Of a stretch of DNA of 64,000 bases, positions 4,893 through 16,510 are shown in pieces. Numbering within the stretch: position 1 is the first letter of the stretch; each line of letters starts with the position of its first letter. Origin of the DNA: an uncultured archaeon (GTDB taxonomy: Archaea > Iainarchaeota > Iainarchaeia > Iainarchaeales > CSSED10-239); assembly GCA_964496765.1 (NCBI GenBank), contig CAZCAP010000003.1:991-64990 (forward strand), given 5' to 3'. The notes under the pieces are model-generated. The model searched no databases. It was not told the DNA's origin and was given only the letters and a program-made list of their open reading frames with translations. The position numbers were made by a program, and so were the translations under genes.

Positions 4893-5741
4893 ATGAATAT
4901 TGATGATAAGAAGAAGTTGATTGTGTTCGAAAATAAAAAGATAAGAAGAATCTGGCATAGTGATGATTGGTTCTTTTCAGTTGTTGATGTGGTTGGTGCA
5001 TTAACTGATAGTGATAATCCTAGAAATTATTGGAATATGCTTAAAATTAGAGAACAAGAGTCTAATGGAATTGAACTGTACACAAATTGTGTACAGTTGA
5101 AATTGGTTGCAGAAGATGGAAAATTAAGAGAAACTGATTGTGCAAACCTAGAAGGAATATTTAGAATTATTCAATCTATTCCATCAAAGAAAGCTGAACC
5201 ATTCAAACTATGGCTAGCAAAAGTTGGAAATGAGAGAATTAATGAGATGCATGATCCAGAGCTTACCATAGATCGAGCAATGAGAGATTATCTAAGAAAA
5301 GGATACTCAAAGGAATGGATTAATCAAAGATTAAAAACAATTGAAGTAAGAAAAGATCTAACTGATGAATGGAATAGGGTTGGAATAGAAAATGATTTGG
5401 ATTATGCGATTCTCACAAATGAGCTTACAAAAGCATGGTCTGGAAAAACAGTTGGAGAGTACAAGAAATTAAAGAATATTAAAAAAGAAAATCTTAGAGA
5501 TAATATGACTAATCTTGAATTAGTCTTAAATATGCTTGCAGAAGCAACCACTACAGAGATTTCAAAAAAGGATGATCCAAAAACATTTACTGAAAGCAAA
5601 CAAATTGCAAACAAGGGTGGAACCATTGCAGGAAATGCAAGAAAGGAGATTGAAACACATCTAGGTAAGTGTGTTGTAACATCAAGAAATGCAAAAAATT
5701 TTCGTTTAGAAAAAAAGGACAAACAAAAATTAATAAAATAA
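4893..5741 (+). CDS. Bro-N domain protein, DinD-like (family common in phages and mobile elements)
   Basis: The N-terminal pattern is FENKKIRRIWHSDDWFFSVVDVVGALT..NYW..DGKLRETD..EGIFRIIQSIPSKKAEPFKLWLA. The C-terminal half resembles DinD-type proteins as I remember them. Confidence 0.7.
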   Translation: MNIDDKKKLIVFENKKIRRIWHSDDWFFSVVDVVGALTDSDNPRNYWNMLKIREQESNGIELYTNCVQLKLVAEDGKLRETDCANLEGIFRIIQSIPSKKAEPFKLWLAKVGNERINEMHDPELTIDRAMRDYLRKGYSKEWINQRLKTIEVRKDLTDEWNRVGIENDLDYAILTNELTKAWSGKTVGEYKKLKNIKKENLRDNMTNLELVLNMLAEATTTEISKKDDPKTFTESKQIANKGGTIAGNARKEIETHLGKCVVTSRNAKNFRLEKKDKQKLIK

Positions 5742-5755
5742 ATTTGTGATTAAAA

Positions 5756-7903
5756 ATGGTTGAAGATTTTGATTTTGAAGATTTTGAAACAACAGAAAAC
5801 ATAACAAGAACAAATGTAACCGTTGATGAATACATAAACACGTTTCTTGAATTCTTTGAAAGTATATGTAAAAGAGATATTGAATTTCTTGCATCTAATT
5901 ATCCCACTGAAAGAAGTCTGATGGTTGATTATAAAAAACTAGAAGATTTTGATTTATCTTTTGCAGAAAAACTTCTTGAAAACCCAAACCTCCTATTGGA
6001 AGCAGCAAACATTGCAATCAAGAAAATGGATGTGGGTATTCTAGATGCAGAAATTGAAATGAAGTTTGAACCAATCGTTAGATTCTTTAATATTCCAAAG
6101 GAATATATGATTGAGATCAGAGATATTGGTGCAGAACAAATTTCTAAATTAATTTCTGTTGAAGGTACCATTAGAATAACAACTGAAAGACTTGAAAAAT
6201 TAACTCTTGCACATTTTGTTTGTAAATCCTGTGGAACAAGCGTGGATATTATTCAAAAAACCCAGATCATGGTTAAACCTTTATTTTGTCCTGATTGTAA
6301 AAAACGTGATTTTGATTTAGATCTTGATCAAAGTAAATTTATAGATTACCAAAAACTAAACATGCAGGAACCTCTTGAAAATCTAAAGGGTAGTGATCAA
6401 GCAAACAATATAGAGGTATTTATTTCTGATGATCTTGTTAATCTTTGTTCCGCTGGTGATAAAATAATTGTTACTGGAATCATGAAGCTAAGACCACCAA
6501 AGGGAGATCAAAATATTTATACAAAATATATTCTTGCAAATCATATTGAACAGATAGATCAGGAATACAGTGAACTTAAAATTTCTCCAGAAGAGGAACA
6601 GGAGATTAGTGAGCTTTCAAAAAAAGGAGATGTTTATGATTTATTATCTGAATCTGTTGCTCCAATGATTTTTGGACATGAGGTTGTTAAGGAAGCAATC
6701 ACCTTACAAATGTTTGGTGGTGTGAAAAAAGAATTTGCTAAGCAATCACTAAGAGGAAACATACACATTCTATTGGTAGGAGATCCATCAACTGGAAAAT
6801 CACAATTATTAAAATATGCAGACATTCTTGCTCCAAAAAGTATTTATGTTGCAGGAAAAACAGCATCTGGTGCTGGTTTAACTGTTTCTGCAGTAAAGGA
6901 TGAGTTTGGAGATGGAGGTTGGACTCTTAAGGCTGGTGCTGTTGTTCTTGCTAGTGGTGGAATGGCGATGATTGATGAATTTGATAAAATGCTACCTGAT
7001 GATCGTTCAGCTCTTCACGAAGCAATGGCCCAGGGAACTGTTTCTGTTTCGAAGGCAGGGCTTTACACAAAATTTAAAGCAGACACATCCATTCTTGCGG
7101 CCGCAAACCCAAAATACAATAGATTTGATAGATATAAAAATCCAATTGAACAAATTGATCTTCCCTTTTCACTAATTTCTAGATTTGATTTGTATTTTAT
7201 TATTCCAGATATCCTAGATAGAGGAATGGATTTAAATATTACTAAACACATTTTAAAAACACACAGACTTGCTCAGCAGTACACAGGTATTGAAAAAAAC
7301 AAATCAATTTCAAAAGAAGAATTACAAATTATTGAAAAAGAAATTTCTCCAAAGATTAGGCCCGATTTATTTAAAAAATATGTTGCCTATGCTAGACAGA
7401 ACATAACTCCTGTTCTTTCTGAAGAAGCATCAAACAAGATACTTAATTATTATGTTGAGTTAAGAGATTTAGGGAGAGGAAAGAAAAGCTTCACAGCCAC
7501 TCCTCGTCAATTGGAAGGGTTAATTAGATTATCAGAAGCAAGTGCAAGAGTTAAACTTAAATCAGTTATTGATCCAAGCGATGCAGATAGAGCAATAAGA
7601 ATATTTAAAACCTCTTTAGAGCAAACTGCAACAGATAAGGAGACTGGAGTAATTGATATTGATATATTAACCACTGGACAATCACAGAGTGAAAGAAACT
7701 TCATGAAAAACATTACAAAATTAATTAGAGATTTGACTGTGGATGGAAACCCAGTTGCTGTGTCCAAGGTTCTTGAAATGGCTGTTAAGGAAAACATGCC
7801 TGAAGAAAGAGTAAGAGAAGCAATCTCTAAGCTTAAGAAGATTGGAGACCTCTATGAACCAAGAGCAGGTCTTTTAAAAGTAACGGAGCCAGATAATATC
7901 TAA
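5756..7903 (+). CDS. mcm: MCM replicative helicase
   Basis: Zinc finger CKSCG..CPDCKK, Walker A GDPSTGKSQ, Walker B MIDEFDKM, arginine-finger region SRFDL, and a C-terminal winged-helix-like tail. No intein is present. Confidence 0.97.
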   Translation: MVEDFDFEDFETTENITRTNVTVDEYINTFLEFFESICKRDIEFLASNYPTERSLMVDYKKLEDFDLSFAEKLLENPNLLLEAANIAIKKMDVGILDAEIEMKFEPIVRFFNIPKEYMIEIRDIGAEQISKLISVEGTIRITTERLEKLTLAHFVCKSCGTSVDIIQKTQIMVKPLFCPDCKKRDFDLDLDQSKFIDYQKLNMQEPLENLKGSDQANNIEVFISDDLVNLCSAGDKIIVTGIMKLRPPKGDQNIYTKYILANHIEQIDQEYSELKISPEEEQEISELSKKGDVYDLLSESVAPMIFGHEVVKEAITLQMFGGVKKEFAKQSLRGNIHILLVGDPSTGKSQLLKYADILAPKSIYVAGKTASGAGLTVSAVKDEFGDGGWTLKAGAVVLASGGMAMIDEFDKMLPDDRSALHEAMAQGTVSVSKAGLYTKFKADTSILAAANPKYNRFDRYKNPIEQIDLPFSLISRFDLYFIIPDILDRGMDLNITKHILKTHRLAQQYTGIEKNKSISKEELQIIEKEISPKIRPDLFKKYVAYARQNITPVLSEEASNKILNYYVELRDLGRGKKSFTATPRQLEGLIRLSEASARVKLKSVIDPSDADRAIRIFKTSLEQTATDKETGVIDIDILTTGQSQSERNFMKNITKLIRDLTVDGNPVAVSKVLEMAVKENMPEERVREAISKLKKIGDLYEPRAGLLKVTEPDNI

Positions 7904-9682: not shown

Positions 9683-10123
9683 TTGGAAAAGAAAAGTACA
9701 GGAACTGGTTTTGTTGTTAGAAGACAAAGAGTCCCAAACACTCAAAATCTAGAGATGTTTGGTAAGGTTATGCAACTTATGGGTGTTAATAATATTCAAA
9801 TCATTTGTGAGGATGGAAAGGAAAGAATTTGTAGAATACCTGGTAAGATGTTTAAACATATTTGGCTAAAGCCAGGCGATATTGTGATTATTAAACTATG
9901 GGACTTTCAACCAACCAAAGGGGATGTTGTTTGGAGATACATTGGATTTCAAACCACTCAGCTAGAGAAGAGAGGTTTACTAAATGAACTATATAAACAT
10001 ACCCATGATACAATCCACCAGGATAATTATAGAAGTAATTATGGTGCACAAAAGGAATCACTTTCTGAAGAAGAGATTGAACTTGTGACTGATGATGAAT
10101 CAGCTGATGAGTCTACCGAATAA
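9683..10123 (+). CDS. eif1a: Translation initiation factor aIF-1A
   Basis: S1-like OB core (MFGKVMQLMG..IICEDGKERICRIPGKM..IWLKPGDIVII..WD) with an acidic C-terminal tail. The start codon is TTG. Confidence 0.9.
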   Translation: MEKKSTGTGFVVRRQRVPNTQNLEMFGKVMQLMGVNNIQIICEDGKERICRIPGKMFKHIWLKPGDIVIIKLWDFQPTKGDVVWRYIGFQTTQLEKRGLLNELYKHTHDTIHQDNYRSNYGAQKESLSEEEIELVTDDESADESTE

Positions 10124-10138
10124 CTATAAATTAAATGT

Positions 10139-10891
10139 TTGATTATGTTAAAAAAATTTGAAATTGATAGTAAGATCCAGGGCTATGTTTTTGATGAAAA
10201 CACAAAGGCAGCCCTCTTCAAGCTTGCAAGTAATAATATAATTGATTCCATTGATTCTCCCATTGCTTCAGGAAAGGAAGCAATCACTTTTCTAGGCCAT
10301 CTTGAAAAAAATCCAATTGTTGCAAAGATATACAAGATTGAAACAAGTAATTTCAAGAACATGAGTAAATACATTAAAGGAGATTATAGATTTCGGGCAG
10401 TTTCAAAAGACAAACGTGATTTGTTTTTACTTTGGGCAAACAAAGAATACAAAAACCTAACCCTTGCAATCAGGAATGAGGTGGCGGTTCCAATCGTAAT
10501 CGCCAAGGAAAAAAACATTTTGATCATGTCTTTTATTGGAGATGGGGAAATACCCTATCCACAACTAACTAAAGTTAAATTTGACTATGATGTGGTTTAT
10601 CCACAAATTATTGAAAACTATGCACGTCTGCTCTATGGTGCGAAAATTGTTCACGCAGATTTTTCTGCATATAACATTTTAATTAATCCAAGAACCCAGA
10701 AGATAACACTAATTGATATGGGCCAAGCAGTTGTTTATTCTCATCCAAAATCAAAAGAGTTTTTAAAAAGAGATATAATTAATATTACTGATTTCTTAAA
10801 TAAAAAGTTTAAAAAACTTAATCTAACCTATGAAACTGTGCTTGATGATTTGAAAAAGAAAAAAGAAGAAATTTATGGAAGAAGTAATTAG
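10139..10891 (+). CDS. rio1: RIO-type serine protein kinase
   Basis: GKEAITF nucleotide-binding segment, catalytic VHADFSAYNIL and metal-binding IDMGQAV. An alternative ATG start lies at 10145. Confidence 0.88.
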   Translation: MIMLKKFEIDSKIQGYVFDENTKAALFKLASNNIIDSIDSPIASGKEAITFLGHLEKNPIVAKIYKIETSNFKNMSKYIKGDYRFRAVSKDKRDLFLLWANKEYKNLTLAIRNEVAVPIVIAKEKNILIMSFIGDGEIPYPQLTKVKFDYDVVYPQIIENYARLLYGAKIVHADFSAYNILINPRTQKITLIDMGQAVVYSHPKSKEFLKRDIINITDFLNKKFKKLNLTYETVLDDLKKKKEEIYGRSN

Positions 10892-11456
10892 AGTTGGAAA
10901 GCAAAGGATCCCTGTGATTATTGGAATCAATGGTGAAACCAAGAGAGAAATTGAACAAAAAACAAAAATTAGTCTTGAAATTAATAGCTCTACTGGTGAT
11001 GTGAATATTATTTCTGATCTTTCCTACTATGAAATTCACCAGGCAAAGAACATAATCTCTGCAATTGCAAGAGGATTTAGTCCTGAACACGCCTATAAAT
11101 TACTTGAAGACAATTATTCTTTTGATGTTATTAATCTAACTGATTATGTATCAGATTCAAGAGGAAGACATGAACAGGTAAAGGGAAGAGTAATAGGAAG
11201 AGAAGGTAAAGTTAAGCAGATGATAGAAAAAAGAAATAATTGTTTCTTGTCAGTTTATGGTAAAACCATTGGAATAATTGCACCCGTTGATAAGATTGAA
11301 GAAACAAGAGAAATTATTGAGAAAATCCTATCGGGAGCTAAACACACAACCATTTTTAAAATGATTAAAAGAAATAGTTTTGAAGAAAAAGAAGAAGGTT
11401 CAAAACAAAATTCAAGTGAAATTGATAATATTAATTTTGACGAAGAAGAAAATTAA
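10875..11456 (+). CDS. KH-domain RNA-binding protein (Dim2/Pno1-like)
   Basis: Two KH-like modules (IIGINGETKREIEQKT and VIGREGKVKQMIEKRN). It occupies the conserved archaeal position after aIF1A and rio, and overlaps the rio 3' end. Confidence 0.75.
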   Translation: MEEVIRVGKQRIPVIIGINGETKREIEQKTKISLEINSSTGDVNIISDLSYYEIHQAKNIISAIARGFSPEHAYKLLEDNYSFDVINLTDYVSDSRGRHEQVKGRVIGREGKVKQMIEKRNNCFLSVYGKTIGIIAPVDKIEETREIIEKILSGAKHTTIFKMIKRNSFEEKEEGSKQNSSEIDNINFDEEEN

Positions 11457-11470
11457 AATAGGTGGAAAAT

Positions 11471-11923
11471 ATGAAGAAAGCAAAAAAAGCTGAAGGAACA
11501 GCAATAATAATCACGAGAGTTTATTCTGTTTTGAATTGGATTGGAGCAATCGCAAGTTTGTTTCTTGCAATTATTCTAATTGTATTCAGTTCTAATCTCT
11601 CAAACATGTTGCCAGCCATTGGAATGGAATTTGGATCTGCAATATTTATTTTTATTGGGATTATTCTATTTGTTATTGGCCTTTTAGGAATCGCGGTTGC
11701 ATGGGGTTTGTGGAAATATAAGAACTGGGCACGAATATTAACTTTAATATTTGTTGGATTTTCTCTTATTTCAACAATTATTGGGTTGATTAAAGGATTT
11801 GATAGTGTGCAAATAATTTGGTTAATTCTTGATGCACTAATAATCTATTTGTTTGGATTCTATAAACCAATTGTTCATTTATTTTATAATCCATTCCTTG
11901 CAAAGAAAACAAAAAGAAAATAA
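11471..11923 (+). CDS. Small integral membrane protein (4 predicted TM helices), function unknown
   Basis: Hydrophobic segments run throughout. The track start (GTG at 11462) lies inside the GGTGG RBS at 11461-11465, so the ATG at 11471, 5 nt downstream, is preferred. Confidence 0.6.
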   Translation: MKKAKKAEGTAIIITRVYSVLNWIGAIASLFLAIILIVFSSNLSNMLPAIGMEFGSAIFIFIGIILFVIGLLGIAVAWGLWKYKNWARILTLIFVGFSLISTIIGLIKGFDSVQIIWLILDALIIYLFGFYKPIVHLFYNPFLAKKTKRK

Positions 11924-11951: not shown

Positions 11952-14144
11952 TTATTTATCAATAAGTTCTGCTTTTTTTATTGTTATGTATCCAGTGAAC
12001 TCATTTTTAAGTACCCTACTATAGTCTTTAATTACTATTTTTTTCTTAAAGGTGGGCCCCGAAAGAACAAGGGTCTCATATTCCCCACCTTCTCCAGCAA
12101 TATTAAATCCATAGTGCTTTGAATTAATATATCCTCTCCCAAGCCCGCTCTTTAGTTTATTATTTAATCTAATTAAATCCTTTACTTCTTTTTCTTCAAT
12201 TCTTTTATTTAACCATTTTTCTGATAGTCCATAGCCAGCAATCTTGCACATCACAAATTCAAATTTATTATCCACAAGCTCAAACAATTCCTGGTCCTGT
12301 TTTTTGTGCCAAAGAGGAGAAAACATACGAAGATTTAATTGATTACAAATTTTTTGAATTCTCTCTCTTTGATAATTACTATATAGCGCTCCAGAAATAA
12401 CTCCCTGAATTCCGTATTTTTTCTTAGCATCCTCAAGTGCAATTTTAAGATCCTTTAGCTCAAGCTCTTTTTCTCCTTTTGTTTTTCTAGTAATTAGTGG
12501 AATCTCCAGAGCCTCTGCCTGCAATTTTAAAAAATTAAGATTTGGTTGTTGGAACATGTATGAATCTGGGTTAGTTGGAATTATTGAAACCAGACAGGAT
12601 ATCTCATAGTTTTGTCTTTGCATAATATAAAGAGCGAGATTAGAATCTTTTCCTCCTGAATAGAGGCAAGCAAGTTTCATGTTCTTTTCTTTAGCAAAGG
12701 TTGCTAGATAGTCTGCCTTTCCTTTATATCTTGCTTCCTTTGCAAGCTTTTCAATGCCCTTATCAAAATTACTACCATACTGAGCAGCGGTTTTTTTTCG
12801 TTCATAAATTTCTTTTGATTGCCCAAGATTTTTGGCTACATCTCTCAAAACTAATTTATTGTCTTCTGTTTTTAAATTTATCTTGTAATCATCAATCAAT
12901 CCTAAAGCAAATCTAATCAAGCTAACATCTAAATATGGAAGTCTTAATTCAATTTCATTATCCATTGTGAGCACATCATCTCTATAAATATCATTTTCGT
13001 GCATTTGTTGTAAAAGATTTAAACTATCGAGCTGCACGTTATTTGATTCATTAAACCTAGAATACCCTGCAAATATTTCATCAGCTCCAAGACCAGAAAA
13101 TAAAACTTTTATGCCATCCTCCTTTGCCCTGGTTGATGCAAGATAAATGGGAAGTGAAACCCCAACTTTGATTGGATTGCTAGATTCAATTAGTGGTATT
13201 ATTTTTTCAAGTAGTTTTGGAATTTCGTTGTAATTAATGAAAATAATTTTTAAATCTAAGTCCATCTCTTTTGCAATTTTCTTTGCAAACTCTAAATCCT
13301 TTGGCTCTCCAAAACCATCACAATATGCAAAATAGCAGCTGAAGTTTATTTTTTCTTTTTTTAATATATTTGCTAATATTACTGAATCAATTCCACCACT
13401 AAACAGTAGTCCTAACTTTTTTTCTGGAATTCTTTTTTTAATGGAATCAATCAATAGCTTTTCTAATTTTGTGCTTGCTTCTTCAAAAGTTATTTTTTTA
13501 CTTGTTTTGGAAGGAGTAATGAATTTTCTATCAACAAACGCAAGTTTTTTTGTTTTAATATCATACCTAATTATTTTACTTGGAGATAATAATTCTATAT
13601 TTTCAAAACCTAATTTTTTAAGTGATTTCTTTTCAGATGAAAAACCAAAACTTCCATCATTTTCATTATAAAAGAACCAAATTGGTTTTTCTCCAATAAT
13701 GTCTCTTGAAAGAACAACATTATCATTTGAAACATAGCAAAAGGCCCAAACCCCATCCAATTCATCAAGTATCTTTATATTCTCTTTAATTGTATTGTTT
13801 TCTAGTAAAGCAAATAGTGTTTCTGCATCATTTTTTGTTGAATAATTATATTTCTTGTTTATTTTCTTCCAGTTATATATTTCACAATTTGCAACTAAGT
13901 AATTTTGCTTGTTTGCGAGAGGTTGATGGGTTAATGAAACAATTGAATGAAGAACATGCCCCATTGCACACCTGGTTTCTTTTATTTCACCTAGGTCTAT
14001 GTTTTTTGGGTTTTCAAAATATAGTACTTTTTCTAAATTACATATCCCACAGAAATCCATTCCCCTATTCCTAATAGTAATAAGTGATTTTTTTGTTAAA
14101 TCATTTGCATTATCAATATTAAAAAATCCAGTTATACCGCACAT
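11952..14144 (-). CDS. Fusion protein: class II glutamine amidotransferase + asparagine-synthetase-type PP-loop domain + Dph6/MJ0570-like (diphthine-ammonia ligase family) PP-loop domain
   Basis: The N-terminus is MCGI (Cys2 nucleophile). The first PP-loop is SGGIDS. From Met489 (nt 12680) there is a second PP-loop, SGGKDS, plus the EGGEYETLVL signature of the Dph6/DUF71 family. It is a single uninterrupted ORF. Confidence 0.8.
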   Translation of the reverse strand: MCGITGFFNIDNANDLTKKSLITIRNRGMDFCGICNLEKVLYFENPKNIDLGEIKETRCAMGHVLHSIVSLTHQPLANKQNYLVANCEIYNWKKINKKYNYSTKNDAETLFALLENNTIKENIKILDELDGVWAFCYVSNDNVVLSRDIIGEKPIWFFYNENDGSFGFSSEKKSLKKLGFENIELLSPSKIIRYDIKTKKLAFVDRKFITPSKTSKKITFEEASTKLEKLLIDSIKKRIPEKKLGLLFSGGIDSVILANILKKEKINFSCYFAYCDGFGEPKDLEFAKKIAKEMDLDLKIIFINYNEIPKLLEKIIPLIESSNPIKVGVSLPIYLASTRAKEDGIKVLFSGLGADEIFAGYSRFNESNNVQLDSLNLLQQMHENDIYRDDVLTMDNEIELRLPYLDVSLIRFALGLIDDYKINLKTEDNKLVLRDVAKNLGQSKEIYERKKTAAQYGSNFDKGIEKLAKEARYKGKADYLATFAKEKNMKLACLYSGGKDSNLALYIMQRQNYEISCLVSIIPTNPDSYMFQQPNLNFLKLQAEALEIPLITRKTKGEKELELKDLKIALEDAKKKYGIQGVISGALYSNYQRERIQKICNQLNLRMFSPLWHKKQDQELFELVDNKFEFVMCKIAGYGLSEKWLNKRIEEKEVKDLIRLNNKLKSGLGRGYINSKHYGFNIAGEGGEYETLVLSGPTFKKKIVIKDYSRVLKNEFTGYITIKKAELIDK

Positions 14145-14320: not shown

Positions 14321-16510
14321 ATGAACTTTAAAATTACTACGTATTTATTTGTTATTCTTGGATTGATTATGTTATTTTCTTCAATTTATGCTGAAGGAGA
14401 ATGTAATCCCCAAACAGGACCTGCTGACGCAACCTGGTTAGAAGATAATGCAACCTGTATTTGTGTTCAAACAGTATCAATGAACGGAAATGGTGTTCAA
14501 AGCACATCCTACATTGCAAGTTGTTCAGATCCTATACCAATTTCCACATCTGGTGGGAATTCGACTCAATCATCTGATGCTAATTCGACTCAATCATCTG
14601 ATGCAAACTCAACTCAATCACCAACCACAGCAACTACTTCATCAAATGAGGACACTACTCAGTCTTCTGAGGAAATAGATGTTCAAGTAAATTCTGCATC
14701 TACAAACTCATCAACAGGTGTTGGTCAATCCACAACTGAATGTCAAATCCAAATAAAAGAGTATAATAAAAAAATTAAAGATCTTTATTCATCACATTCA
14801 TCTTTCATAAAAGAAAAACAAACAAACATAAAGAATGCTAGAGATGAAATAAATAGATTATTAAAAGAATATAATAATTGTAAACCAAATAAACAACAGG
14901 GTAGATTAGATGAAATTAATAAAAAACCCACAATAACAGGAAATTTTATTTTAGGTAATTCAGTTTCCATAGAAAATGTGATTGGTTCAGATCAGGTAAT
15001 GGCAATAACCATTGCTGAAGCACCAACAGTTTCTGGAACCATCAATAATGATGACGAGCAATTTATCGCATCTGAGGATCTTGTGGCTGCAATTGATAAT
15101 GAAAATAATTCATTTCTAACTTCTGTAGATGTTAGACTTAATACAACAGAGGGTGATGAAAATCTATCTACTGATTGTGTAGCAATTAAAGAAAAAATAA
15201 AAAAACAAATGGAAATTATTAAAAAAAATCTATTAGAACTTCACGATTTTAAAGATCAAAATAAAGAACTAGTGGATAAGGTAAAAGAACTAATCAGAAA
15301 CAGAAATCAACTAATCAAAAATTGTATGGGTGTTCAAACAACCATAGAATGTAAAGTTCCTGAAGAATTATTAAATAAATTAAGAGAACTAGAAATAAAG
15401 ATGTCTACTGTTAAAGGAGAAATAATTAGTGATACTGACGCTTCTCAAGATAATTATTCAGAATATACTAGTATCAAAGAAGAATACCTTGCAATTACAA
15501 ATAAAATAAAAGTAATAAAGGATGATTGCCAAATCAGAGGTAAGGTGGCTAGTGGGCAAGATAGAATTTGTCAAGAAAAAGCAGATATAATCAGAAACAT
15601 GGATGAAATTAAAAATGCACTTGAACAAACTACAAATGACGAAGAAGCCTATCAATTAAAAACAAAACTAGAATATTTACAACAAAAGTTCAGTGGGGTT
15701 ATTTGTGCAGACCCTAATTTTGTAGGTTCTAAAGATGAAGTAGCAATTAGTTCAATAAAAATTTCTGCAAATGCGAAAAACAATCTTAGAGAGTGTATAA
15801 CTAGTCTTGTTGACAAAGCAGCTGTTGATGAAGAAATTGCAACTAATGCTTGTGCACAAAAGTATTCCCAAGAAGGCCAAGGATATAAGGAAAGAATCAT
15901 GGCTCTTGAACAAAAGATTGGAGAACAACAGGACATTATTACAAATCTAAAAGCTAAGATGTTAGGCATCCAACAAAAAATAAATAATGCAACATCTGAA
16001 ACTAAAACCCAGTTTATTGAAGAAAATGCAAGTGATCTGAAAACAGACACCATTGCAAAAATAGATAGAAAAATAGAATCATTAAAGAAATTAATTGAAA
16101 ACATAGATTCTTCTGATCTTGATGACACCAAAAAAGAAGAAATGATTGATTCAATTAATAATAACATAGCAAGTTTAAATAGGCAAAAAGAAAATATACA
16201 AAATTCAGAAACAACAGATGAATTAAAAACTTATCTAACAGAAGCAAGAAATGCTGATGGGCTTGCAAACAGGGGTGCAATCATTTCTGGAATAAAAACC
16301 CAAACTATGGAGCTTGAAAGAATTATGAATAAATATTTCTTAACTAATCAGGATTATCAAAGTTTGAAACTAGAACTTGATGCATTAAAAGCAAAGATAG
16401 CTAGTATTTCTCAAAATTCATCAGATACTGAAATTAATAGTCTAAAAGAGCAATACAAAGCACTAAGAGATAAGATCATCTCATCTTCACAGGAGGTTGA
16501 AACACAATGA
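14321..16510 (+). CDS. Secreted or surface-anchored coiled-coil protein with Ser/Thr-rich repeats
   Basis: N-terminal signal-like segment YLFVILGLIMLFSSIYA, a Cys-containing head and NSTQSSDA repeats, followed by a long Lys/Glu/Asn-rich heptad-like region. An AGGAGG RBS lies at 14306-14311. Confidence 0.7.
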   Translation: MNFKITTYLFVILGLIMLFSSIYAEGECNPQTGPADATWLEDNATCICVQTVSMNGNGVQSTSYIASCSDPIPISTSGGNSTQSSDANSTQSSDANSTQSPTTATTSSNEDTTQSSEEIDVQVNSASTNSSTGVGQSTTECQIQIKEYNKKIKDLYSSHSSFIKEKQTNIKNARDEINRLLKEYNNCKPNKQQGRLDEINKKPTITGNFILGNSVSIENVIGSDQVMAITIAEAPTVSGTINNDDEQFIASEDLVAAIDNENNSFLTSVDVRLNTTEGDENLSTDCVAIKEKIKKQMEIIKKNLLELHDFKDQNKELVDKVKELIRNRNQLIKNCMGVQTTIECKVPEELLNKLRELEIKMSTVKGEIISDTDASQDNYSEYTSIKEEYLAITNKIKVIKDDCQIRGKVASGQDRICQEKADIIRNMDEIKNALEQTTNDEEAYQLKTKLEYLQQKFSGVICADPNFVGSKDEVAISSIKISANAKNNLRECITSLVDKAAVDEEIATNACAQKYSQEGQGYKERIMALEQKIGEQQDIITNLKAKMLGIQQKINNATSETKTQFIEENASDLKTDTIAKIDRKIESLKKLIENIDSSDLDDTKKEEMIDSINNNIASLNRQKENIQNSETTDELKTYLTEARNADGLANRGAIISGIKTQTMELERIMNKYFLTNQDYQSLKLELDALKAKIASISQNSSDTEINSLKEQYKALRDKIISSSQEVETQ
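14558..14620 (+). repeat. 24-nt coding tandem repeat (about 2.6 copies) encoding NSTQSSDA
   Basis: aattcgactcaatcatctgatgct is followed by aattcgactcaatcatctgatgca and then a partial aactcaactcaatca. Confidence 0.9.

Follow-up and report, generated by a model that had tools for sequence, protein, structure and literature searches.

A putative fused archaeal diphthamide synthetase whose AsnB-like amidoligase module is probably not an asparagine synthetase

In archaea and eukaryotes, elongation factor 2 (EF-2) carries a conserved modification, diphthamide, and the yeast diphthine--ammonia ligase, Dph6, works with ammonium alone. A fusion of the archaeal Dph6 homolog (DUF71) to an AsnB-like protein was reported in 2012 in Methanohalophilus mahii, Methanosalsum zhilinae, and 'Ca. 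Nanosalinarum' (de Crecy-Lagard et al., Biol Direct 7:32, PMC3541065). The same paper, which also describes two C-terminal RidA-like domains in yeast Dph6, split the AsnB part into a class-II glutamine amidotransferase (GAT-II) domain and a PP-loop domain and proposed that glutamine hydrolysis provides NH3 to the DUF71 site, the AsnB site, or both; a reviewer's query about the PP-loop that consumes the ammonia, and about the reaction of the AsnB-like PP-loop, was left open (PMC3541065). The supplementary table of that study lists one DUF71 homolog each for M. mahii and M. zhilinae (PMC3541065), and we infer this single entry to be the fused protein and hence the only Dph6 candidate of either species. 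Narrowe et al. (2018) described dph1/2 in DPANN genomes, sometimes split in two genes, and do not mention the fusion (PMC6143161). A 2023 study of cultivated nanohaloarchaea found that most amino acids are not synthesized, yet listed an 'asparagine synthase AsnB', one of a small number of genes for amino-acid biosynthesis present, together with Dph5 (PMC10266531); this 'AsnB' may be the fused gene. Here we analyze such a fusion gene, an open reading frame (ORF) on the reverse strand of a 64,000-nucleotide stretch (the window) of contig CAZCAP010000003.1 from an uncultured archaeon of the Iainarchaeales. The best overall explanation, which we hold with slightly more confidence than doubt, is that this ORF encodes a fused archaeal diphthamide synthetase with a glutamine-dependent amidoligase coupled to it.

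The Met1-Cys2 (MCGI) start of the 730-residue protein is unambiguous because an in-frame stop lies three codons 5' of the ATG, and its modules are arranged in the order class-II glutaminase, AsnB-type PP-loop domain, and Dph6 (Table 1). The original prediction, made from the sequence without database searches, had described a single 730-codon ORF with these three domains; on re-check its coordinates and every motif position that it quoted were found as given, including the Met489 codon, which begins at nt 12680, and the EGGEYETLVL motif, which runs from residue 685 (nt 12092 downward). Pfam returns the domains in the predicted order, with GATase_7 at residues 72-176 (1e-16; GATase_7 and GATase_6 together span 54-176), Asn_synthase from residue 226 (2.3e-39), and Diphthami_syn_2 (PF01902) at residues 489-726, where it covers profile positions 1-218 of 219 (5.2e-60). 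The prediction had also stated that it knew of no characterization of this architecture. The architecture is indeed uncharacterized, but it is not novel, since both it and the hypothesis of glutamine-derived NH3 have been known since 2012 (PMC3541065) and annotation pipelines name its relatives as well, the NCBI name being 'diphthine--ammonia ligase'.

That the junction is an assembly or sequencing error linking two adjacent genes has next to no probability, and we consider this explanation ruled out. The region around the junction (nt 12650-12720), where a missed stop or frameshift had been thought worth excluding, contains no break; the reading frame is continuous, and the identical 730-residue protein was read on 8 contigs, three of the places being JGI 3300028298, ENA ERZ27248920, and Logan SRR8437287. 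All 120 of the best database matches listed are full-length fusions of 671-742 residues with the same three domains (E down to ~1e-194), and the residue counts over 120 proteins given below refer to these relatives. In a further scan, each GTDB species was represented by one genome and the profile was built from unfused relatives only, so that the fusion was not favored; this yielded 375 relatives, and the loci of the best 80 were classified. The survey of archaeal genomes suggested along with the original prediction thus found a single reading frame for the AsnB-like and Dph6 parts at 72 of 80 species loci, among them all seven nanohaloarchaeal loci classified. A few loci (8 of 80) carry an AsnB-like gene without a Dph6 part, and nothing else was found that points towards an artifact. 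Fusion-bearing taxa include Woesearchaeota, Nanoarchaeota, Nanohaloarchaea, Iainarchaeum/Diapherotrites, and Altiarchaeota. Isolates and metagenome-assembled genomes (MAGs) of Methanolobus carry it too, and their fusions share 44-47% identity with the window protein along its whole length; one is encoded on the 3.2-Mb chromosome of the cultured Methanolobus sp. WCC1 (WP_407282110.1), whose genome is complete. The fused form of Dph6 is therefore common in DPANN archaea, being the majority form among the loci examined, and is also present in a few halophilic Methanosarcinaceae.

Several of the surveyed sequences are irregular. One MAG (locus L028) has its AsnB-like gene in two frames (9962-10507 and 10532-11491) with no Dph6 part, and may represent a pseudogene or a sequencing error. 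One locus labeled Acidobacteriota (L035) and about 20 labeled 'uncultured Methanosarcinales' (e.g., L009, L020, and L080) carry fusions closest to DPANN versions; the GC content of the loci labeled 'Methanosarcinales' ranges from 0.21 to 0.51, and their taxonomic labels or binning look unreliable. One fused protein of 1005 residues (P0157) has about 360 extra N-terminal residues ahead of its AsnB-like module; with such an extension the Cys nucleophile would be buried, unless processing occurs or the start was mis-called.

The C-terminal domain is canonical. It scores 245.8 bits on NCBIfam TIGR03679 (Dph6_archaeal), above the equivalog cutoff of 197.3, and together with the nearly complete Pfam profile this bears out the complete Dph6 domain, with SGGKDS and EGGEYETLVL motifs, that had been predicted. 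Residues 491-727 match the solved structures of PH1257 (4.5e-48) and PF0828 (1.1e-44), and the modeled domain superposes on both with TM-scores normalized to the target (TMt) of 0.94-0.96 and root-mean-square deviations of 1.2-1.6 Å. In PF0828, residues S44, Y45, E78, Y103, Q104, A149, E183, E186, and E188 are predicted to face EF-2 (PMC3541065). The equivalents of S44, E78, Y103, Q104, E183, E186, and E188 are invariant in the 120 fused relatives, and the window counterparts S528, Y529, E562, Y591, Q592, E685, E688, and E690 are conserved; the A149 position is Gly in the window protein and Ala in 93 of 120 relatives. As judged from these residues, the domain appears to be a bona fide Dph6 with its catalytic and predicted EF-2-facing residues intact, and we are confident that the window gene is the organism's Dph6.

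The middle domain is a different matter. The original prediction called it an AsnB-type PP-loop domain, and so it is by fold and by its SGGIDS motif: human ASNS and E. coli AsnB are among the solved structures that residues ~57-455 match, and the two-domain fold compares with human ASNS (6GQ3, 8SUE) and E. coli AsnB (1CT9) at TMt 0.75-0.78. On the NCBIfam asparagine synthase model TIGR01536, however, the protein scores 245.6 bits, below the cutoff of 267.1, and free-standing relatives with the same signature (the L-type proteins discussed below) score 245-265 bits. We aligned the family to the E. coli AsnB sequence and to a human ASNS fragment and checked the residue identities; E. coli numbering is used unless noted. 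On the synthetase side, the PP-loop, Ser346/Gly347, Asp351 (Asp or Glu), Glu352, Asp384, Arg387, and Lys449 are kept. The S, G, D, and S of PP-loop 1 are invariant in 120/120 fused proteins and in 14/14 relatives that lack the glutamine amidotransferase (GATase) module, and S249, G251, D253, S254, the Mg/pyrophosphate acids D355 and E356, and K451 of the window protein are invariant or nearly so. At other positions the family departs from asparagine synthetases: Thr321 is replaced by Val or Ile, Thr322 by Lys (112/120), and Arg324 by Gly (112/120), which gives the family motif (V/I)KVG; Glu348 is replaced by Leu (Leu352 of the window protein; 110/120), and Ala388 by Asp (D389; 119/120). Expressed in human numbering, D367, E368, D400, R403, and K466 are kept, and R48, T336, T337, R339, and E364 are replaced. 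Among the 150 nearest cluster representatives, an exhaustive HMMER search found neither Glu at the position of Glu348 nor Arg at that of Arg324 in any member. The human ASNS variants E364A and E364Q are inactive, and T336I leaves almost no activity (PMC6748925).

The replaced positions appear to be those that set the specificity of asparagine synthetase for the glutamine carboxylate and for aspartate, and the replacements themselves are conserved. Lacking Arg49, Glu348, Thr321/322, and Arg324, the AsnB-like module is unlikely to be a true asparagine synthetase, and the 'AsnB-type' label survives as a statement of fold and PP-loop only. In the putative acceptor pocket, the acidic cluster that binds the cationic group is kept and enlarged, and the residues on the alpha-carboxylate side are lost, having become hydrophobic or Lys. 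Speculatively, such a pocket would suit a carboxylate beside a cation but without a second free carboxylate, as in diphthine or an esterified aspartyl group. The module resembles a functional amidotransferase of the glutamine type with a re-specified acceptor pocket.

The glutaminase module and the route from it to the synthetase site are also largely preserved. The Cys nucleophile directly follows Met and is Cys in 118/120 relatives; the equivalents of Asn74, Glu76, and Asp98, which provide the oxyanion Asn and the glutamine-binding network, are N86 (119/120), E88 (118/120), and D106 (120/120), and Arg30 is retained as well. At the tunnel residues of human ASNS, as listed in PMC11615228, the family has V at V119, L at L255, F or I at M344, L at V401, and L at L415. 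The gate residue Arg142 corresponds to Lys153 (118/120) and its partner Asp405 to Asp390 (119/120), and the interface residue Glu414 to Glu399 (119/120). By alignment, then, the AsnB-like module seems to keep its nucleophile, ammonia tunnel residues, gate, and ATP/pyrophosphate site. Two departures stand out on the glutaminase side: AsnB Arg49, which binds the glutamine alpha-carboxylate, is Leu65 in 120/120 relatives and is followed by His66 (His in 115/120), and Gly75 is Cys87 (118/120). The human counterpart of Arg49, Arg-48, is an N-terminal-domain residue placed to contact glutamine (PMC6748925). In the window these departures are seen as Asn-Cys-Glu instead of the usual Asn-Gly-Glu (13881-13889) and Leu-His instead of Arg-Leu (13947-13952), and they may reflect a different amide donor.

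The relatives that lack one of the three modules are informative. Free-standing L-type proteins of 440-500 residues, found in the exhaustive HMMER search, carry the same signature and end exactly where the linker of the fusion begins. Genes for free L-type proteins with the SGLG/RDD signature are located at 9977-11470 of L056 (CP060218.1, a complete Woesearchaeota genome) and at L021, L040, L044, and L073, and no dph6 was found within 10 kb of any of these five. A split version of the fusion, in which the lone AsnB-like gene would adjoin dph6, was not seen within the available flank at any of the 8 loci with an AsnB-like gene alone. Other relatives retain the fused AsnB-like PP-loop and Dph6 domains and have no glutaminase module (L086 3769-5253, Logan SRR23823812_44674; P0266; P0214; P0252; P0187). 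Two such fusions that were checked are contig-internal: P0211 begins 7 bp after a peptidase gene, and P0266 leaves no room for a GATase module. The nearest full-length fusion differs for each GATase-less fusion, and the glutaminase was therefore lost several times. The Cys nucleophile is also lost in a few full-length fusions (P0166, P0206, and P0225).

We compared residue retention between 88 proteins with the GATase module and 14 without it. The gate-partner Asp (window D390) is present in 78/88 of the former and 3/14 of the latter, and the interface Glu (window E399) in 82/88 and 8/14. In the same comparison the PP-loop S, D, and S are present in 83, 86, and 88 of 88 and in 14, 14, and 14 of 14, the Arg387 equivalent in 81/88 and 14/14, the Lys449 equivalent in 77/88 and 14/14, and the new pocket Asp (window D389) in 79/88 and 13/14. 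Thus the gate partner and interface residue relax only where the GATase module is absent, with no such relaxation at the PP-loop, R387, K449, and D389. The former result indicates that the coupling of glutaminase to tunnel is under selection in full-length proteins. Because the AsnB-like ATP site is kept after GATase loss, it functions independently of the glutaminase and is no mere conduit or fossil. Taken together with the pocket residues, this suggests that the ATP site is catalytically alive and that its acceptor is not aspartate.

An AlphaFold2 (AF2) model of the 730 residues, built with the 120-sequence alignment, has a mean predicted local distance difference test score (pLDDT) of 91.9 and a predicted template modeling score (pTM) of 0.88. 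The linker is ordered in this model, with pLDDT block means of 87-96 over residues 461-490 and a helix at 476-481, and poor prediction is confined to a lineage-specific insert at residues 669-676. The pTM over three modules implies a confidently fixed, rigid predicted arrangement, in which Dph6 starts ~38 residues past the active-site Lys451. Among Foldseek matches, no solved structure spans more than one part of the protein (best query-normalized TM-score 0.56). In a fused diphthamide synthetase arranged in this way, the amide donor, probably glutamine, would be hydrolyzed at Cys2, and NH3 would reach the AsnB-like ATP site through the conserved AsnB tunnel; in the model, this site is packed rigidly on a Dph6 domain that occupies the position of the AsnB C-terminal tail. 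The Dph6 domain would adenylate the diphthine carboxylate on archaeal EF-2 (aEF-2), and NH3 would then yield diphthamide. For the hand-over step itself, that is, that NH3 of the AsnB-like module serves diphthamide formation, the case falls a little short of even. The original proposal of glutamine-derived NH3 for diphthamide accordingly stands in part: the nucleophile, the oxyanion Asn, the tunnel, and the gate are conserved and the AF2 arrangement is rigid, but GATase-less fusions keep their PP-loop, and therefore a glutaminase that feeds Dph6 cannot fully explain the fusion.

These observations lead us to propose, tentatively and with doubts that somewhat outweigh our confidence, that the N-terminal two-thirds of the protein founds an L-type AsnB-like family of glutamine-dependent amidoligases, recognizable by the signature SGLG...RDD and by Leu-His in place of Arg-Leu, which would amidate a cation-bearing carboxylate distinct from aspartate and whose function would be tied to diphthamide formation on aEF-2. 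Such a family could act in two ways: cooperation with Dph6 would make diphthamide synthesis glutamine-dependent, or the AsnB-like module would perform a second, translation-related amidation.

Several observations weigh against a glutamine-dependent diphthamide synthetase. No dph2, dph5, or EF-2 gene was found in the 64-kb window in a Pfam search of ~50 ORFs (small ones included to allow for a split Dph2), and these genes are not recurrent near the fusion gene in the 80 loci, nor in Methanolobus. The absence of a dph cluster near the fusion gene agrees with the remark made in 2012 that diphthamide genes seldom cluster (PMC3541065). No dph6 was found in the available flank at 8/8 loci with the AsnB-like gene alone. 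Where the GATase module is absent or the nucleophile is dead, diphthamide synthesis cannot depend on glutamine. Two intact ATP-pyrophosphatase sites are present for only one known carboxylate, the loss of Arg49 raises doubt about the identity of the amide donor, and Asp389 could in principle be a relocated catalytic acid that rescues asparagine synthesis. Finally, our literature search found no later paper on the fusion and no biochemical characterization of any member.

The main rival is a reading in which two independent amidoligases share one chain, which we consider unlikely without dismissing it. Dph6 would use free ammonia, and the AsnB-like module would be a glutamine-dependent amidoligase for a different acceptor that bears an amine and is not aspartate (speculatively, an aspartyl or other carboxylate whose second carboxylate is blocked, e.g., Asp-tRNA(Asn)); in that case regulation or location in common, and not ammonia hand-over, would account for the fusion. 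The conservation of the PP-loop site after GATase loss would be expected of such a protein, as would the free L-type modules without a nearby dph6 and an acceptor pocket that is identical in fused and free forms, with its acidic amine-binding cluster kept and its alpha-carboxylate side turned hydrophobic or Lys; the ability of yeast Dph6 to work on ammonium alone fits as well. The very wide conservation of the fusion and the rigid predicted packing between domains argue instead for direct coupling, and gene neighborhoods support no candidate acceptor.

A bifunctional protein composed of a genuine glutamine-dependent asparagine synthetase and Dph6, which is implied in the 2012 paper and used in DPANN genome annotation, is improbable. 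By sequence and by fold, residues 1-488 match ASNS and AsnB best, TIGR01536 is missed by only 22 bits, and the PP-loop, Lys449, Asp351/Glu352, Asp384, and Arg387 are kept, with the new Asp389 as a possible stand-in for Glu348. These points have to be set against the change of Glu348 to Leu and of Thr321 to Val or Ile at positions where the human variants are inactive or nearly so (E364A/E364Q and T336I; PMC6748925), the clade-wide conservation of Arg324 to Gly and Arg49 to Leu, and the retention of the gene in organisms without most amino-acid synthesis.

Table 1. Features of the fusion gene in the window (residue numbers refer to the 730-residue protein)
Feature	Window coordinates	Strand	Basis or remark
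Whole ORF	11952..14144	-	730 codons + stop, start Met1-Cys2; identical protein on 8 contigs read
Class-II (N-terminal nucleophile, Ntn) glutaminase module, residues 1-205	13530..14144	-	Pfam GATase_7 and GATase_6; Cys2, Arg27, Asn86-Cys87-Glu88, Asp106
AsnB-type PP-loop (adenylating) domain, residues 215-482, non-canonical acceptor pocket	12699..13502	-	Pfam Asn_synthase, fold match
PP-loop 1 SGGIDS, residues 249-254	13383..13400	-	S, G, D, S invariant
IKVG, residues 325-328, in place of the asparagine synthetase TTIR segment	13161..13172	-	Alignment
SGLGADE, residues 350-356; Leu352 at the Glu348 (E. coli)/Glu364 (human) position	13077..13097	-	Alignment
Arg388-Asp389-Asp390	12975..12983	-	R388 = Arg387/Arg403 equivalent; D389 new pocket acid; D390 salt-bridge partner of gate Lys153
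RKKTAAQYGS, residues 449-458, with Lys451 = essential Lys449/Lys466 equivalent	12771..12800	-	K in 120/120
Short ordered linker, residues 471-488	12681..12734	-	pLDDT; free-standing relatives end here (...YLxSL)
Dph6 (diphthine--ammonia ligase, DUF71/MJ0570) domain, residues 489-730	11955..12680	-	TIGR03679, PH1257/PF0828 matches
PP-loop 2 SGGKDS, residues 496-501	12642..12659	-	S, G, K, D, S in 120/120
EGGEYE, residues 685-690, Dph6 signature; PF0828 E183/E186/E188 equivalents	12075..12092	-	120/120

Clustering of the neighborhoods of the 80 loci revealed lineage synteny only (a DRG-like GTPase, a cytidylyltransferase-like gene, and prefoldin) and no link to dph or asn genes. A DRG/Obg-type GTPase gene lies upstream on the same strand at 15/80 loci, a Woesearchaeota-like subset (e.g., L017 7904-9079), and a small cytidylyltransferase-like gene lies downstream at 12-13 of the 80 (e.g., L007 11834-12292); both neighbors probably reflect lineage synteny and not a functional link. 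The window has a GC content of 29.8% and encodes archaeal housekeeping proteins (MCM, aIF-2beta, aIF-1A, Rio1, TopoVI, RadA, exosome subunits, and proteasome alpha), a combination in keeping with a DPANN-type archaeon. RNA scans found four tRNAs only, which are irrelevant to the fusion. The divergent neighbor of the fusion gene, at 14321-16510 (+), is an ORF of 729 residues with a hydrophobic N-terminus, Ser/Thr/Asn-rich repeats (…NSTQSSDANSTQSSDA…), and a long stretch with many charged residues and heptad-like repeats; it has no Pfam match and may be a secreted or surface protein. Elsewhere in the window, a gene for a Bro-N domain protein at 4893-5741 (+) stands directly upstream of the MCM helicase gene (5756-7903). 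The Bro-N domain is best known from viruses and mobile elements.

The physiological ammonia source for the final reaction in making diphthamide has been discussed since 2012, and the fusion is a natural experiment for that question. The evidence from residues and domain loss added here sharpens the question, raised in 2012, of the role of the AsnB-like PP-loop. For DPANN annotation, the residue evidence indicates that the label 'asparagine synthase' is probably wrong and the label 'diphthine--ammonia ligase' incomplete; if the L-type proposal is true, then it is a misassignment to count the 'AsnB' of DPANN genomes as residual amino-acid biosynthesis. The protein is also valuable as a well-defined target for biochemistry, with orthologs in cultured Methanolobus and Methanohalophilus.

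The C-terminal 242 residues of the window protein have the SGGKDS and EGGE(F/Y)E motifs in common with the stand-alone archaeal Dph6 enzymes (PF0828, PDB 3RJZ/3RK0/3RK1; PH1257, PDB 2D13); unlike the window protein, those enzymes have no amidotransferase partner. With asparagine synthetase (1CT9, 6GQ3, 8SUE) the window protein shares the equivalents of Cys1, Asn74, Glu76, and Asp98, the tunnel, the PP-loop, and Lys449, and Dph6 takes the place of the C-terminal tail. The beta-lactam and carbapenam synthetases, whose fold is also that of AsnB (TMt about 0.7), provide a precedent: their AsnB-like PP-loop domains act on carboxylates other than that of aspartate, and they too have a different residue at the Glu348 position. 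They form lactams and have a dead N-terminal domain without the Cys nucleophile, whereas the window family mostly keeps both nucleophile and tunnel. The AsnB-DUF71 fusions of 2012 have the same three modules in the same order as the window protein; few examples were known and their middle domain was treated as an asparagine synthetase, whereas the middle domain of the window type is without the residues specific to asparagine synthetases.

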